A stretch of 64,000 nt of DNA, from the NCBI RefSeq assembly GCF_041886205.1, contig NZ_CP169029.1; one strand, given 5' to 3'. This document shows, piece by piece, positions 39,937 through 47,094 of this stretch (positions are counted from its first letter, which is position 1; every line of letters begins with the position of its first letter). Under the pieces are notes generated by a model, which had not been told where the DNA came from, did no database searches, and worked only from the letters and a program-made list of their open reading frames with translations. Both the position numbers and the translations under genes were made by a program. The stretch is from Escherichia coli. GTDB taxonomy: Bacteria > Pseudomonadota > Gammaproteobacteria > Enterobacterales > Enterobacteriaceae.

Positions 39937-41139
39937 ATGCAAAGTGTTGATGTAGCCATTGTTGGCGGCGGCATGGTGGGGCTGGCGGTTGCCTGCGGCT
40001 TACAGGGTAGCGGCTTACGCGTTGCCGTACTGGAGCAGCGCGTACCGGAACCTCTGGCGGCGGATGCACCACCACAACTGCGCGTTTCGGCTATCAATGC
40101 CGCCAGCGAAAAATTACTCACCCGTCTTGGCGTCTGGCAGGACATTCTCTCTCGTAGGGCCAGTTGTTATCACGGTATGGAAGTGTGGGACAAAGACAGT
40201 TTTGGTCACATTTCGTTTGACGATCAAAGCATGGGCTATAGCCATCTTGGGCATATCGTTGAAAACTCAGTGATTCACTACGCGCTGTGGAACAAAGCGC
40301 AGCAGTCGTCAGATACCACTCTGTTGGCCCCCGCAGAATTACAGCAGGTCGCCTGGGGAGAAAACGAAACCTTCCTGACGCTGAAAGATGGCAGTATGTT
40401 AACGGCGCGTCTGGTGATTGGCGCGGACGGCGCTAATTCCTGGTTGCGCAACAAAGCCGATATTCCGCTGACTTTCTGGGATTATCAGCATCACGCGCTG
40501 GTAGCGACCATTCGCACGGAAGAACCGCATGATGCGGTGGCGCGGCAGGTTTTCCATGGCGAAGGCATTCTGGCCTTTTTACCGCTTAGCGATCCGCATC
40601 TTTGCTCGATTGTCTGGTCACTGTCGCCAGAGGAAGCGCAGCGTATGCAGCAGGCAGGGGAAGACGAATTTAATCGCGCGTTAAATATCGCTTTTGATAA
40701 TCGCCTGGGCTTATGCAAGGTTGAGAGCGCGCGTCAGGTGTTCCCACTGACGGGGCGTTATGCGCGCCAGTTTGCCGCGCACCGTCTGGCGCTGGTGGGC
40801 GACGCCGCGCATACCATTCACCCGCTGGCGGGGCAGGGGGTAAATCTCGGCTTTATGGATGCTGCAGAGCTGGTTGCTGAACTGAAACGGTTGCATCGTC
40901 AGGGTAAAGACATCGGGCAGTACATTTATCTGCGTCGCTATGAGCGTAGCCGCAAGCACAGTGCGGCGATGATGCTGGCTGGTATGCAGGGATTCCGCGA
41001 TCTGTTTTCCGGTACCAATCCGGCGAAAAAACTGCTGCGTGATATTGGTTTGAAACTGGCCGACACGCTTCCTGGCGTTAAGCCGCAACTTATCCGCCAG
41101 GCGATGGGATTAAACGATTTGCCTGAATGGCTGCGTTAA
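39937..41139 (+). CDS. ubiI: 2-octaprenylphenol hydroxylase UbiI (VisC), 400 aa
   Basis: ORF track 39937..41139; MQSVDVAIVGGGMVGLAVACGL; paralog of UbiH. Confidence 0.95.
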   Translation: MQSVDVAIVGGGMVGLAVACGLQGSGLRVAVLEQRVPEPLAADAPPQLRVSAINAASEKLLTRLGVWQDILSRRASCYHGMEVWDKDSFGHISFDDQSMGYSHLGHIVENSVIHYALWNKAQQSSDTTLLAPAELQQVAWGENETFLTLKDGSMLTARLVIGADGANSWLRNKADIPLTFWDYQHHALVATIRTEEPHDAVARQVFHGEGILAFLPLSDPHLCSIVWSLSPEEAQRMQQAGEDEFNRALNIAFDNRLGLCKVESARQVFPLTGRYARQFAAHRLALVGDAAHTIHPLAGQGVNLGFMDAAELVAELKRLHRQGKDIGQYIYLRRYERSRKHSAAMMLAGMQGFRDLFSGTNPAKKLLRDIGLKLADTLPGVKPQLIRQAMGLNDLPEWLR

Positions 41140-41180
41140 AAATTTCTCTTCTGCTGTTTATTTGATACCCATCACACTTT

Positions 41181-41212
41181 CATCTCCCGGTTTTTTCGCC
41201 GGGAGATTTTCC
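41181..41212 (+). terminator. Rho-independent terminator downstream of ubiI
   Basis: tctcccgg-ttttttcg-ccgggaga followed by ttttcc. Confidence 0.8.
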
Positions 41213-41586
41213 TCATTTGAAATAAACTAATTTCACCTCCGTTTTCGCATTATATTTTCTAATGTCACGAATTTTTGATTTAGTGTTTTTTGACATTTTT
41301 TCAGCTCTTAATGTTGCCTTATTCAAATTAACTTTCTCATCACATCATCTTTATATAGAAACTGGTGTATTTTTTGGTTTTTTATTCTGTTGCGGTTTTG
41401 GCGTTTTTTAACCATAAGCTAATGTGATGATCAATTTTACCTTATGGTTAACAGTCTGTTTCGGTGGTAAGTTCAGGCAAAAGAGAACGATTGCGTTGGG
41501 GACCGGGAGTGGCTCTGATGCTGGGTTTCGTGGTGATAATTTCACCATGAAAAAGTTGTCAGCCCCGCTTATTCAATGAGGACAAG

Positions 41587-42681
41587 ATGGCACAACAGAC
41601 TCCTTTGTACGAACAACACACGCTTTGCGGCGCTCGCATGGTGGATTTCCACGGCTGGATGATGCCGCTGCATTACGGTTCGCAAATCGACGAACATCAT
41701 GCGGTACGTACCGATGCCGGAATGTTTGATGTGTCACATATGACCATCGTCGATCTTCGCGGCAGCCGCACCCGGGAGTTTCTGCGTTATCTGCTGGCAA
41801 ACGATGTGGCGAAGCTCACCAAAAGCGGCAAAGCCCTTTACTCGGGGATGTTGAATGCCTCTGGTGGTGTGATAGATGACCTCATCGTCTACTACTTTAC
41901 TGAAGATTTCTTCCGCCTCGTTGTTAACTCCGCCACCCGCGAAAAAGACCTCTCCTGGATTACCCAACACGCTGAACCTTTCGGCATCGAAATTACCGTT
42001 CGTGATGACCTTTCCATGATTGCCGTACAAGGGCCGAATGCGCAGGCAAAAGCTGCCACACTGTTTAATGACGCCCAGCGTCAGGCGGTGGAAGGGATGA
42101 AACCGTTCTTTGGCGTGCAGGCGGGCGATCTGTTTATTGCCACCACTGGTTATACCGGTGAAGCGGGCTATGAAATTGCGCTGCCCAATGAAAAAGCGGC
42201 CGATTTCTGGCGTGCGCTGGTGGAAGCGGGCGTTAAGCCATGCGGCCTGGGCGCGCGTGACACGCTGCGTCTGGAAGCGGGTATGAATCTTTATAGTCAG
42301 GAGATGGACGAAACCATCTCTCCTTTAGCCGCCAATATGGGCTGGACTATCGCCTGGGAACCGGCAGATCGTGACTTCATCGGTCGTGAAGCCCTGGAAG
42401 TGCAGCGTGAGCATGGTACAGAAAAACTGGTTGGTCTGGTGATGACCGAAAAAGGCGTGCTGCGTAATGAACTGCCGGTACGCTTTACCGATGCGCAGGG
42501 CAACCAGCATGAAGGCATTATCACCAGCGGTACTTTCTCCCCGACGCTGGGTTACAGCATTGCGCTGGCGCGCGTGCCGGAATGTATTGGCGAAACGGCG
42601 ATTGTGCAAATTCGCAACCGTGAAATGCCGGTTAAAGTGACAAAACCTGTTTTTGTGCGTAACGGCAAAGCCGTCGCGTGA
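41587..42681 (+). CDS. gcvT: Glycine cleavage system T protein (aminomethyltransferase), 364 aa
   Basis: ORF track 41587..42681; [38 protein letters not shown]. Confidence 0.97.
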
Positions 42682-42704
42682 TTTACTTTTTTGGAGATTG
42701 ATTG

Positions 42705-43094
42705 ATGAGCAACGTACCAGCAGAACTGAAATACAGCAAAGAACACGAATGGCTGCGTAAAGAAGCCGACGGCACTTACACCGTTGGCATCACCGAACAC
42801 GCTCAGGAGCTGTTAGGCGATATGGTGTTTGTTGACCTGCCGGAAGTAGGCGCAACGGTAAGCGCGGGCGATGACTGCGCGGTTGCCGAATCAGTAAAAG
42901 CGGCGTCAGACATTTATGCGCCAGTAAGCGGTGAAATCGTGGCGGTAAACGACGCACTGAGCGATTCCCCGGAACTGGTGAACAGCGAACCGTATGCAGG
43001 CGGCTGGATCTTTAAAATCAAAGCCAGCGATGAAAGCGAACTGGAATCACTGCTGGATGCGACCGCATACGAAGCATTGTTAGAAGACGAGTAA
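42705..43094 (+). CDS. gcvH: Glycine cleavage system H protein (lipoyl carrier), 129 aa
   Basis: ORF track 42702..43094 starts at a TTG; ATG at 42705 gives [20 protein letters not shown]; lipoyl-Lys motif region ESVKAASD. Confidence 0.96.
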
Positions 43095-43103
43095 CGGCTT
43101 TAT

Positions 43104-43175
43104 TCCTCTTCTGCGGGAGAGGATCAGGGTGAGGATATTTACGCCTCACCCTCACTCTCTTCGCAAGGAGAGAGG
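43104..43175. repeat. GC-rich imperfect palindromic intergenic repeat (BoxC-like) between gcvH and gcvP
   Basis: cctcttctgcgggagaggatcagggtgaggatatttacgcctcaccctcactctcttcgcaaggagagagg; shares the motifs gggagagg / agggtgagg / atatttac / cctcaccc with the element after gcvP. Confidence 0.45.
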
Positions 43176-43211
43176 TTCACAATTCACTGCACGTTTCAGG
43201 AACCATCGCTC

Positions 43212-46085
43212 ATGACACAGACGTTAAGCCAGCTTGAAAACAGCGGCGCTTTTATTGAACGCCATATCGGACCGGACGCCGCGCAACAGCAAGAAATGCT
43301 GAATGCCGTTGGCGCACAATCGTTAAACGCGCTGACCGGCCAGATTGTACCGAAAGATATTCAGCTTGCGACTCCGCCGCAGGTTGGCGCACCGGCGACC
43401 GAATACGCCGCGCTGGCGGAACTCAAGGCTATTGCCAGTCGCAATAAACGCTTCACGTCTTACATCGGCATGGGTTACACCGCCGTGCAGCTACCGCCGG
43501 TTATCCTGCGTAACATGCTGGAAAATCCGGGCTGGTATACCGCGTATACTCCGTATCAACCTGAAGTCTCGCAGGGCCGCCTTGAAGCACTGCTCAACTT
43601 CCAGCAGGTAACGCTGGATTTAACCGGGCTGGATATGGCCTCTGCTTCTCTTCTGGACGAAGCCACCGCTGCCGCCGAAGCAATGGCGATGGCGAAACGC
43701 GTCAGCAAACTGAAAAATGCCAACCGCTTCTTTGTTGCTTCTGACGTTCATCCGCAAACGCTGGATGTGGTCCGTACTCGTGCCGAAACCTTTGGTTTTG
43801 AAGTGATTGTCGATGACGCGCAAAAAGTGCTCGACCACCAGGACGTCTTCGGCGTGCTGTTACAGCAGGTCGGCACTACTGGTGAAATTCACGACTACAC
43901 CACGCTTATTAGCGAACTGAAATCACGCAAAATTGTGGTCAGTGTCGCCGCCGATATTATGGCGCTGGTGCTGTTAACTGCGCCGGGTAAACAGGGCGCG
44001 GATATTGTTTTTGGTTCGGCGCAACGCTTTGGCGTACCGATGGGCTACGGTGGCCCACACGCGGCATTCTTTGCGGCGAAAGATGAATACAAACGCTCAA
44101 TGCCGGGCCGTATTATCGGTGTATCGAAAGATGCAGCTGGCAATACCGCTCTGCGCATGGCGATGCAGACTCGCGAGCAACATATCCGCCGTGAGAAAGC
44201 GAACTCCAACATTTGTACTTCCCAGGTACTGCTGGCAAACATCGCCAGCCTGTATGCCGTTTATCACGGTCCGGTTGGCCTGAAACGTATCGCTAATCGC
44301 ATTCACCGTCTGACCGATATCCTGGCGGCGGGCCTGCAACAAAAAGGTCTGAAACTGCGTCATGCACACTATTTCGACACTTTGTGTGTGGAAGTGGCCG
44401 ACAAAGCGGGCGTACTGGCGCGTGCCGAAGCGGCTGAAATCAACCTGCGTAGCGATATTCTGAACGCGGTGGGGATCACCCTTGATGAAACCACCACGCG
44501 CGAAAACGTGATGCAGCTTTTCAGCGTACTGTTGGGGGATAACCACGGTCTGGACATCGACACGCTGGACAAAGACGTGGCTCACGACAGCCGCTCTATT
44601 CAGCCTGCGATGCTGCGCGACGACGAAATCCTCACCCATCCGGTGTTTAATCGCTACCACAGCGAAACTGAAATGATGCGCTATATGCACTCGCTGGAGC
44701 GTAAAGATCTGGCGCTGAATCAGGCGATGATCCCGCTGGGTTCCTGCACCATGAAACTGAACGCCGCCGCCGAGATGATCCCCATCACCTGGCCGGAATT
44801 TGCTGAACTGCACCCGTTCTGCCCGCAGGAACAGGCCGAAGGTTATCAGCAGATGATCGCGCAGCTGGCTGACTGGCTGGTGAAACTGACCGGTTACGAC
44901 GCCGTTTGTATGCAGCCGAACTCTGGCGCACAGGGCGAATACGCGGGCCTGCTGGCGATTCGTCATTATCATGAAAGCCGCAACGAAGGGCATCGCGATA
45001 TCTGCCTGATCCCGGCTTCTGCGCACGGCACTAACCCCGCTTCTGCACATATGGCAGGAATGCAGGTGGTGGTTGTGGCGTGTGATAAAAACGGCAACAT
45101 CGATCTGGCTGATCTGCGCGCGAAAGCGGAACAGGCGGGCGATAACCTCTCCTGTATCATGGTGACCTATCCTTCCACCCACGGCGTGTATGAAGAAACG
45201 ATCCGTGAAGTGTGTGAAGTCGTGCATCAGTTCGGCGGTCAGGTTTACCTTGATGGCGCGAACATGAACGCCCAGGTTGGCATCACCTCGCCGGGCTTTA
45301 TTGGCGCGGACGTTTCGCACCTCAACCTGCATAAAACTTTCTGCATTCCGCACGGCGGTGGTGGTCCGGGTATGGGACCGATCGGTGTGAAAGCGCATCT
45401 GGCACCGTTTGTACCGGGTCATAGCGTGGTGCAAATCGAAGGCATGTTAACCCGTCAGGGCGCAGTTTCTGCGGCACCGTTCGGTAGCGCCTCTATCCTG
45501 CCAATCAGCTGGATGTACATCCGCATGATGGGCGCAGAAGGGCTGAAAAAAGCAAGCCAGGTGGCAATCCTCAACGCCAACTATATTGCCAGCCGCCTGC
45601 AGGATGCCTTCCCGGTGCTGTATACCGGTCGCGACGGTCGCGTGGCGCACGAATGTATTCTCGATATTCGCCCGCTGAAAGAAGAAACCGGCATCAGCGA
45701 GCTGGATATTGCCAAGCGCCTGATCGACTACGGTTTCCACGCGCCGACGATGTCGTTCCCGGTGGCGGGTACGCTGATGGTTGAACCGACTGAATCTGAA
45801 AGCAAAGTGGAACTGGATCGCTTTATCGACGCGATGCTGGCTATCCGCGCAGAAATTGACCAGGTGAAAGCCGGTGTCTGGCCGCTGGAAGATAACCCGC
45901 TGGTGAACGCGCCGCACATTCAGAGCGAACTGGTCGCCGAGTGGGCGCATCCGTACAGCCGTGAAGTTGCGGTATTCCCGGCAGGCGTGGCAGACAAATA
46001 CTGGCCGACGGTGAAACGTCTGGATGATGTTTACGGCGACCGTAACCTGTTCTGCTCCTGCGTACCGATTAGCGAATACCAGTAA
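43212..46085 (+). CDS. gcvP: Glycine dehydrogenase (decarboxylating), glycine cleavage P protein, 957 aa
   Basis: ORF track 43212..46085; [41 protein letters not shown]. Confidence 0.97.
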
Positions 46086-46107
46086 TTTACTGATTCGACT
46101 ATTTTCT

Positions 46108-46130
46108 AAAGGCGCTTCGGCGCCTTTTTA
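46108..46130 (+). terminator. Rho-independent terminator of gcvTHP
   Basis: aaaggcgc-ttcg-gcgcc followed by ttttta. Confidence 0.85.
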
Positions 46131-46159
46131 GTCAGATGACAAAGTACAAAAGTGCTCAG

Positions 46160-46270
46160 ACAGTCCCCTCGCCCCTTTGGGGAGAGGGTTAGGGTGAGGG
46201 GAACAGGCCGGCACTGGCGCGAATATTTACCCTCACCCCGGCCCTCTCCCTGAAAGGGCGAGGGGAAAAG
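46160..46270. repeat. GC-rich imperfect palindromic intergenic repeat (BoxC-like), downstream of gcvP
   Basis: cccctcgcccctttggggagagggttagggtgaggggaacaggccggcactggcgcgaatatttaccctcaccccggccctctccctgaaagggcgaggggaaaag; same motif family as 43104-43175. Confidence 0.45.
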
Positions 46271-46350
46271 CGTGCCAACATTGAAGATTGAGCCAGTTTG
46301 TTAGCAATCTCAAAGATACGTCAACGAATTAATTTTTCTCGGAAAAACAA

Positions 46351-47094
46351 ATGGCTATAGCACTTGTGACCGGTGGCAGTCGCGGCATCGGGCGGACAAC
46401 TGCATTACTGTTGGCGAAAGAAGAGTATACGGTGGCGGTTAATTATCAACAAAACCTCCATGCGGCGCAGGAAGTGGTGAACTTAATCACGCAAGCCGGT
46501 GGCAAGGCATTCGTGCTCCAGGCGGATATCAGCGACGAAAATCAGGTCATCGCAATGTTTACAGCAATCGATCAGCACGATGAACCGCTAGCAGCGCTGG
46601 TCAATAACGCCGGGATCTTGTTTACCCAGTGCACCGTTGAAAACCTTACCGCAGAGCGAATCAACCGAGTACTTTCCACCAACGTGACGGGATATTTTCT
46701 CTGCTGCCGCGAGGCGGTAAAACGCATGGCGCTTAAAAATGGTGGCAGTGGCGGCGCTATCGTCAATGTCTCTTCGGTGGCCTCACGGTTGGGTTCGCCA
46801 GGGGAATATGTTGATTACGCGGCATCGAAAGGGGCGATTGATACGTTAACCACCGGACTATCGCTGGAAGTCGCCGCGCAGGGGATCCGCGTTAACTGCG
46901 TGCGGCCAGGGTTTATTTATACCGAAATGCACGCCAGCGGCGGCGAGCCTGGACGCGTCGATCGCGTTAAGTCGAACATCCCCATGCAGCGTGGTGGACA
47001 GGCAGAAGAGGTCGCGCAGGCCATTGTCTGGCTACTAAGTGATAAAGCCTCTTACGTCACGGGAAGTTTTATCGATTTGGCGGGCGGGAAATAA
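46351..47094 (+). CDS. ygfF: Short-chain dehydrogenase/reductase family oxidoreductase, 247 aa
   Basis: ORF track 46351..47094; SDR motifs TGGSRGIGR (NAD(P) binding) and YxxxK (YAASK). Confidence 0.9.
   Translation: MAIALVTGGSRGIGRTTALLLAKEEYTVAVNYQQNLHAAQEVVNLITQAGGKAFVLQADISDENQVIAMFTAIDQHDEPLAALVNNAGILFTQCTVENLTAERINRVLSTNVTGYFLCCREAVKRMALKNGGSGGAIVNVSSVASRLGSPGEYVDYAASKGAIDTLTTGLSLEVAAQGIRVNCVRPGFIYTEMHASGGEPGRVDRVKSNIPMQRGGQAEEVAQAIVWLLSDKASYVTGSFIDLAGGK

Follow-up and report, generated by a model that had tools for sequence, protein, structure and literature searches.

Hairpins that protect RNA 3' ends, and REP-type stabilisers lying between the genes of an operon, are textbook material. 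By blocking PNPase and RNase II, stable stem-loops that lack a U tract fix the position of steady-state 3' ends (Dar and Sorek, PMC6061677). In Dickeya, an internal termination site has been located after gcvH, with termination given as 71 ± 22%, and the authors state that it agrees with E. coli long-read studies (PMC9239193).

The repeats described as BoxC by Bachellier et al. in the 1990s, as PIT (potential intrastrand triplex) elements by Hoyne/Maher in 2000 and as TMECO by Holder et al. in 2015 form one family (PMC4666352). The TMECO consensus is 5'-CCCTCNCCC N3-6 GGGNGAGGG N3 GGGNGAGGG-3' (PMC4666352). Palindromic TMECO pairs commonly undergo partial deletion, after which a hairpin remains (Holder et al., PMC4666352). 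That paper cites earlier tests in which PIT/BoxC elements acted neither as promoters nor as terminators and left RNA polymerase unaffected (PMC4666352).

The present study concerns the gcvH-gcvP spacer of Escherichia coli, contained in a 64,000-nt stretch of DNA referred to below as the window. An earlier note on this DNA had described a BoxC-like, imperfect 72-bp palindrome in the spacer, and had proposed that it could form a stable mRNA hairpin affecting gcvP translation or transcript stability. The element is of a kind already known: the repeat family to which it belongs, as a degenerate member, has been described before, and its behaviour is probably that of a known class of RNA stabiliser or attenuator.

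Results

Gene names follow RefSeq, as annotated for regions that match the window with 98-100% identity. On the plus strand, gcvT, the first gene of the gcvTHP operon, occupies 41587-42681 (364-aa ORF; the K-12 orthologue is annotated gcvT). It is followed by gcvH at 42705-43094 (129-aa ORF, TAA stop at 43092-43094; RefSeq gcvH lies under the 98-100% identical matches) and by gcvP at 43212-46085 (957-aa ORF, RefSeq annotation). The gcvP intrinsic terminator, AAAGGCGCTTCGGCGCCTTTTT, lies at 46108-46130(+), as judged from the sequence and from a 'primary' Term-seq 3' end at 3,046,123 in K-12. The gcvTHP arrangement in K-12 is identical to that in the window. The 699-nt stretch from gcvH to gcvP has matches of at least 95% identity in 5425/5426 complete E. 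coli genomes, with gcvT, gcvH and gcvP annotated beneath.

The spacer between gcvH and gcvP is 117 nt long, intergenic and internal to the operon. It houses the element at 43104-43175, which reads TCCTCTTCTGCGGGAGAGGATCAGGGTGAGGATATTTACGCCTCACCCTCACTCTCTTCGCAAGGAGAGAGG. The 30 nt before the gcvP start (43182-43211(+), ATTCACTGCACGTTTCAGGAACCATCGCTC) lie outside the repeat and contain the Shine-Dalgarno AGGA. A small minus-strand ORF at 43018-43155, which overlaps both the gcvH coding region and the palindrome, had no support and was set aside.

The imperfect palindrome described in the earlier note is present in the spacer together with every motif quoted for it. A repeat search detected inverted arms of 29 nt each at 43106-43134 and 43144-43172, which are 72% complementary and have 9 nt between them. 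Folded as RNA, the 72-nt element reached -40.4 kcal/mol compared with -22.3 ± 3.0 kcal/mol for shuffled sequences (n = 200; z = -5.99), and none of the shuffles was as good. The whole spacer folded with z = -4.1. A structured palindrome well above chance is confirmed at 43104-43175, and structure prediction bears out the expected mRNA hairpin in the form of three strong hairpins, which make up the MFE structure.

Hairpin 1 (43104-43123(+), UCCUCUUC-UGCG-GGGAGAGGA) begins 9 nt past the gcvH stop codon, has a predicted energy of -11.8 kcal/mol alone, and corresponds to the C-block/G1-block hairpin of the left BoxC half. The central hairpin 2 (43126-43152(+)) is the most stable of the three at -15.8 kcal/mol; its arms, AGGGUGAGG and CCUCACCCU, are separated by a 9-nt loop and represent the two G2 blocks of the inverted pair. 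Hairpin 3 (43155-43174(+), CUCUCUUC-GCAA-GGAGAGAG, -12.2 kcal/mol) is the C-block/G1-block hairpin of the right BoxC half. An alternative fold consists of one long imperfect hairpin, with -27.4 kcal/mol for its 52-nt core. The antisense RNA folds at -34.5 kcal/mol, so that the sense RNA is more stable by ~6 kcal/mol. It folds better because several degenerate positions pair G·U on the mRNA strand.

The window was searched for further copies. The motif GGGAGAGGNNNNGGGTGAGG, with up to 3 mismatches, gave 4 matches in 64 kb compared with 0.17 expected, and these fall in two loci only, 43104-43175 and 46180-46250. The motif pair GGGAGAGG-N4-GGGTGAGG was also confined to two loci in the 64 kb, the gcvH-gcvP spacer and 46180-46250, with 0.17 matches expected. 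The second locus belongs to a canonical inverted BoxC/TMECO pair at 46166-46264, made up of a type A and a type B unit with a 31-nt spacer, which served as the reference copy. It is TMECO 10+11 of Holder et al. 2015; its motifs agree with nos. 10 and 11 of their Table 1, and Supplementary Table S2 puts TMECO 10/11 between ygfF and gcvP (PMC4666352). The sole difference from K-12, a 1-nt indel, falls immediately beyond the two strict TMECO motifs. A BoxC-pair locus lies on either side of gcvP, one in the gcvH-gcvP spacer and the other just past the gcvP terminator.

A pattern scan of the window matched the strict TMECO consensus only at 46166-46200(+) and 46230-46264(-), and not at 43104-43175. 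A TMECO profile HMM was built from 23 K-12 copies. It recognised the two halves of the canonical pair with E values of 2e-12 and 8e-10, and strict consensus is satisfied there on both strands. For the gcvH-gcvP element the matches were weak, E 0.012 (12.3 bits) for the left half at 43113-43134(+) and E 4.1 for the right half at 43175-43145(-). These are the third and fourth best HMM matches in the 64 kb, and they are adjacent and in inverted orientation. The left-half blocks TCCTCTTCT, GGGAGAGGA and GGGTGAGGA have 3, 1 and 1 mismatches to the consensus, respectively, and the right half diverges further.

Each half nevertheless aligns with the TMECO copies of Table 1, and the architecture of an inverted pair is present. 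The element is divided into a left half at 43104-43134, a 9-nt spacer remnant at 43135-43143 and a right half at 43144-43175, all on the plus strand, and is collinear with four full-length pairs across C-block, G1, G2, spacer, C2, C1 and G-block. It is without ~21 nt of the pair spacer, of which the end ATATTTAC is kept. From its sequence, the element appears to be an old, mutated and spacer-shortened inverted BoxC (PIT/TMECO) pair that is fixed in the E. coli spacer. The label BoxC-like was well chosen, down to the word 'like': the element is collinear with canonical inverted pairs, canonical pairs occur at the orthologous site in other genera, and strict consensus is lacking in this copy.

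A ~30-nt spacer, GGAACAGGCCrGCAyyGGyGCGAAnAtTwAC, is common to 3/4 of the full-length pairs, two in K-12 (L087, 624.6 kb; L088, 3,239.6 kb) and the one in the window (46200-46230). Since three inverted TMECO pairs share this spacer, the 'pair' is really one composite element of ~100 nt. The fourth full-length pair (L086, K-12, 164.5 kb) has a different spacer of 20 nt.

The gcvH-gcvP copy is missing from the published list of 23 K-12 TMECOs, and gcvH is not mentioned in the PMC4666352 supplements examined. NC_000913.3 carries no annotated repeat at the gcvH-gcvP spacer or at the equivalent of 46166-46264. When the spacer was compared by blastn with E. coli genomes only the orthologous locus was found, the degenerate copy having no cross-match to other BoxC copies. 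A pattern scan of spacers found no REP (PU) consensus, for example GCCGGATG...CCGGCCTAC, in the window spacer. An Rfam scan of 41000-47000 (E ≤ 10) returned sub-threshold chance matches only, such as whalefall-1 with 21.4 bits compared with a gathering score of 37. Matches to miRNA-like families reflected the long palindrome at 46160-46270 and were rejected as chance.

Using blastn, the gcvH-gcvP spacer was found once per genome, with at least 90% identity, in 5425/5426 complete E. coli genomes. Polymorphism was assessed in a sample of 13 genomes taken at even steps down the BLAST ranking. Six haplotypes were present, and of the six variable columns the central loop contains 4, the hairpin 3 tetraloop (GCAA or GUAA in E. 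coli) 1 and a stem 1. The hairpin 2 stem was invariant in these genomes save for one C-to-U change, which gives a G·U pair in sense RNA. Taken with the G·U pairs of the sense strand, polymorphism that is limited to loops and G·U changes is suggestive of constraint at the RNA level, in a small sample and with hairpin loops that may themselves be mutation hotspots.

Strain VTB96775v (L082, NZ_CP178634.1, 855462-855631) has a 170-nt spacer in which a 53-nt inverted partial duplication of the loop and right arm lies inside the element; it looks like a template-switch event at the palindrome. The genome recorded as E. coli SCPM-O-B-8794 (L003) has a 113-nt spacer with its own degenerate version of the element, which differs from the window at many positions, compared with the ≥90% identity of RefSeq E. 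coli spacers. Its element has TTA/TAA loops, a near-perfect long stem of 18 bp and a UUCG tetraloop in hairpin 1. This strain may belong to a divergent Escherichia lineage.

A role at the level of DNA has been proposed for TMECO, in which an intrastrand triplex or cruciform would disturb replication or recombination and cause local genome instability. Stable triplexes have been obtained in vitro with canonical TMECO oligonucleotides, and strains differ more at TMECO loci (PMC4666352). Single-stranded DNA of the gcvH-gcvP element has a predicted fold of -17.9 kcal/mol (z = -4), and the duplication in VTB96775v is of the palindrome type. However, the three 9-nt blocks needed for a G·G·C triplex are degenerate in this copy, which falls outside the strict consensus, and triplex formation is less likely for that reason. 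Holder et al. report no evidence of a stable triplex in vivo (PMC4666352). Far from being an instability hotspot, the locus varies unusually little across E. coli. With three degenerate blocks and a stable locus, a role as a DNA triplex is unlikely, and we attach hardly any weight to action at the DNA level.

The gcvH-gcvP spacers of other organisms were extracted from GcvH-anchored loci, with 80 species among the matches listed; Salmonella, E. albertii, E. fergusonii and Klebsiella are not among them. The same slot holds a canonical or near-canonical BoxC pair in Enterobacter cloacae (L009), E. asburiae (L025), Pseudocitrobacter (L017), Buttiauxella (L028), Siccibacter (L033) and two further Enterobacteriaceae (L011 and L022). 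The strict TMECO consensus was found in the spacers of L009, L017, L022, L025, L028 and Pluralibacter (L047), the last of which has a single BoxC. Cedecea, Phytobacter and others (L020, L021, L023, L038) have a bare CCCTCTCCC/GGGAGAGGG hairpin.

Elsewhere the slot is filled by other sequences. REP occurs in Citrobacter werkmanii, C. youngae ATCC 29220, Enterobacter quasihormaechei, Lelliottia, Pseudescherichia, Trabulsiella and others, and ERIC-like sequences occur in C. koseri, C. youngae CCUG 30791, Kluyvera, Serratia marcescens and Providencia. A GC hairpin followed by a T-run is found in Photorhabdus, Serratia, Yersinia, Dickeya, Pectobacterium and Providencia. In Shewanella and Idiomarina gcvH is followed by a GC hairpin, behind which a T-run is found in some species only. 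The filler can differ within a genus, as in E. cloacae with BoxC and E. quasihormaechei with REP. One Providencia spacer (L077) is 445 nt long and holds three tandem ERIC-like copies.

A structured domain of ≤ -10 kcal/mol with its onset 0-20 nt past the gcvH stop was present in 67/80 of the listed Gammaproteobacteria loci, a figure obtained without shuffled controls. In most orthologous spacers hairpin onset is 6-12 nt past the stop codon. The gcvH-gcvP spacer of Erwinia and Rosenbergiella is just 8-23 nt long and has no hairpin, so that the operon as such does not depend on a hairpin. The earlier note had counted absence of the element from close relatives, with gcvP expression unchanged, as evidence against it. 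In form that absence exists, as BoxC is lacking from the site in Citrobacter. The conclusion does not follow with it, as REP or ERIC hairpins are found there instead, and such replacement, to judge from these spacers, would argue for a conserved hairpin role.

In the BoxC-type spacers pairing is maintained. Five predicted pairs have changes on both sides, and RNAalifold gives a long nested hairpin. By eye, both-sides changes were seen in the central stem, which is GGGCGGGGG/CCCTCGCCC in Siccibacter and GGGATGAGGG/CCCTCATCCC in the metagenome-assembled genome L011 compared with the canonical GGGTGAGGG/CCCTCACCC. Since the element is a palindrome whose parts are themselves palindromes, this covariation fits the three-hairpin and the long-hairpin fold equally, and constraint on RNA or on DNA equally. 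The last 30 nt before gcvP, including the Shine-Dalgarno, are nearly invariant across Enterobacteriaceae whichever repeat lies upstream. Conservation of 43182-43211 exceeds the need of a Shine-Dalgarno alone, and the segment is a possible regulatory or processing site.

The distance to the stop codon may bear on translation, which the hairpin could control by hindering ribosomes that terminate 9 nt upstream of it and lowering GcvH, or by modulating access to the gcvP ribosome-binding site. Liang, Rudd and Deutscher (2015) reportedly found that terminating ribosomes are impeded, and output lowered, when a REP lies no more than 15 nt from the stop codon, and both the 9-nt onset of hairpin 1 and the 6-12 nt of most orthologous spacers are in keeping with such an effect. 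Against the second possibility, the gcvP Shine-Dalgarno is 40 nt downstream of the element and is unpaired with it in the MFE structure. The literature looked at yielded no GcvH/GcvP translation data. We think translation control very improbable.

The claim that the hairpin bears on transcript fate gained support from published Term-seq data. In MG1655 an RNA 3' end was mapped at 3,049,097 on the minus strand (Adams et al. 2021, PMC7815308, supplementary file 1). Transferred through the K-12/window alignment, this end corresponds to 43156(+), 4 nt past hairpin 2 and inside the 5' arm of hairpin 3. Its 61-nt context reads TCTTCTGCGGGAGAGGATCAGGGTGAGGAAAATTTATGCCTCACCCTCACT|CTCTTCGTAA (PMC7815308), and the position of the 3' end within this string was checked against the gcvP terminator row and K-12 annotation arithmetic. 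The position occurs 3 times in the file, which spans three growth conditions (PMC7815308), and the end is apparently present in all three. Its peak scores are 412,219 and 171,112 compared with 36,065 at the gcvP terminator, 3,046,123 (PMC7815308), a ratio of ~11x for the higher score. It had been classed as 'orphan' because it is >50 nt past gcvH (PMC7815308). No Rho-termination region is listed near it in that dataset. Term-seq 3' ends are also found at K-12 3,050,602(-) and 3,050,723(-), in the start of gcvT and its 5' UTR (window ~41530-41650), with scores of ~80,000-105,000; they hint at premature termination or processing at the operon start.

Other K-12 BoxC copies, at 847200(-), 3781065(+) and 3959467(-), have Term-seq 3' ends 4-5 nt past the C-block/G-block hairpin and no U tract. 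BoxC hairpins may define RNA 3' ends in general. The SMRT-Cappable-seq supplements contain no gcv entries, and a literature search on gcvH with Term-seq or an internal terminator found no E. coli-specific report. E. coli gcvH versus gcvP expression ratios were likewise absent from the literature looked at.

The 3' end and the hairpin coincide, and from this coincidence we infer that the hairpin causes the end. Our main reading, to which we give a probability of about 0.5, is that the gcvTH transcript owes the position and protection of its 3' end to the hairpin, and that gcvP mRNA is kept lower as a result, in the manner of REP stabilisers. Exonuclease blocking is the form of it that we favour. 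Trimming from downstream should halt at hairpin 3 first, yet the 3' end lies in the 5' arm of hairpin 3, so that termination or an endonuclease cut fits at least as well.

A partial terminator, or attenuator, would give the same outcome by another route. RNA polymerase would stop a few nt past the central hairpin in some rounds, gcvP would be transcribed less than gcvTH, and the element would be the equivalent of the hairpin and U-run after gcvH in Dickeya, Serratia, Yersinia and Photorhabdus. An end upstream of hairpin 3 is reached more easily by a stopping polymerase than by downstream trimming, the tail behind the hairpin, CACUCUCUUCG, is moderately U-rich, and no Rho region is listed near 3,049,097. 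However, this tail contains no U tract such as an intrinsic terminator has, and a promoter/terminator consensus scan gave no match in the gcvH-gcvP spacer and thus lends no support to an internal gcvP promoter or a canonical terminator. Intrinsic termination also typically occurs further from the stem than 4 nt. A hairpin followed by a T-run does occupy the slot in many Enterobacterales, among them Dickeya with its 71 ± 22% internal termination after gcvH (PMC9239193). The earlier tests cited in PMC4666352, on the other hand, attributed no terminator activity to PIT/BoxC, and the similar ends (+4-5 nt, no U tract) of other BoxC copies in ordinary 3' UTRs resemble trimming. Attenuation is in our judgement possible but rather unlikely.

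Alternatively, the element could be a neutral relic, a decaying selfish or function-less repeat in a permissive spacer, with a 3' end that is an unselected by-product and has no consequence for gcv expression. Its two halves are degenerate and its spacer is shortened, which is the common fate of palindromic TMECO pairs, and no function has been found for BoxC/PIT elements (PMC4666352). REP, ERIC or nothing is found at the site in other species, and the 53-nt palindromic duplication in one E. coli strain is typical of unstable palindromes. Several observations run counter to neutrality. The element is fixed (5425/5426 genomes), stems in the 13-genome sample are invariant or changed only to G·U while loops vary, and pairing has been kept despite many substitutions relative to canonical copies. 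A hairpin follows gcvH in most taxa sampled, and the coincident 3' end is far stronger than the signal of the operon's own terminator. Fixation and loop-only polymorphism weaken the case for a relic, which we regard as unlikely.

Discussion

If the hairpin acts as a 3' end definer, the following steps would be expected. Transcription of gcvTHP would yield a sense RNA that folds into GC-rich hairpins from 9 nt past the gcvH stop. The central hairpin, with its predicted -15.8 kcal/mol, would set the dominant steady-state 3' end of the gcvT-gcvH transcript. 3'-to-5' exonucleases (PNPase, RNase II) would trim back transcripts that are cut or terminated further downstream and would halt at the hairpin. 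The gcvTH part would then be shielded as the gcvP part decays, and more gcvT/gcvH message than gcvP message would be obtained from a single promoter.

The comparison with other genera allows a wider proposal, which we make tentatively. The slot after gcvH may be functionally conserved as a site that sets the level of gcvP message relative to gcvTH message, and may have been refilled over time by terminators, BoxC, REP or ERIC. The E. coli relic would then be kept by selection on the hairpins of the sense RNA, and BoxC elements would generally be stabilisers that define 3' ends. Palindromic repeats tend to accumulate after stop codons, and occupancy of the slot may for this reason reflect insertion preference and not selection.

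The gcvH-gcvP element embodies no new principle. It does suggest a plausible RNA-level role for BoxC/PIT/TMECO, to which earlier studies, centred on DNA, could assign no function, and it would account for a strong Term-seq 3' end inside gcvTHP that had been classed as 'orphan'. The published TMECO list omits the copy and the Term-seq table labels the end no more than 'orphan', so that joining them amounts to a minor new annotation. The locus also illustrates, in natural genomes, how unrelated palindromic repeats and terminators take each other's place at a single site inside an operon. The GcvT/H : GcvP ratio is probably set by this spacer, which therefore matters for engineering of glycine cleavage or the reductive glycine pathway in E. 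coli.

Three described systems are close to this element. With BoxC/PIT/TMECO it shares the block order of C-block, loop, G-block, 3-nt loop and G-block. It is likewise an intergenic inverted pair of two units, retains the shared-spacer remnant ATATTTAC, and has a canonical pair 3 kb away after gcvP. It differs in that its spacer is 9 nt compared with 20-31 nt and both halves fail the consensus. It is also operon-internal and very stable across strains, whereas TMECO loci are variable.

REP/BIME stabilisers, for example that of malE-malF (Newbury et al. 1987, as cited in PMC6061677), are also extragenic palindromes between two genes of one operon. In both cases a stable RNA 3' end lies just past a hairpin without a U tract, and the upstream message is expected to exceed the downstream message. 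REP fills the same slot in Citrobacter, Lelliottia and some Enterobacter. The gcvH-gcvP element nevertheless comes from an unrelated sequence family without the REP consensus, and its stabiliser function is a putative one.

The Dickeya dadantii terminator after gcvH (PMC9239193) has the same position in the operon and produces a gcvTH-only transcript beside full-length gcvTHP. Dickeya uses a canonical hairpin and U run (L056, L061), whereas E. coli has no U tract and derives its hairpin from an interspersed repeat.
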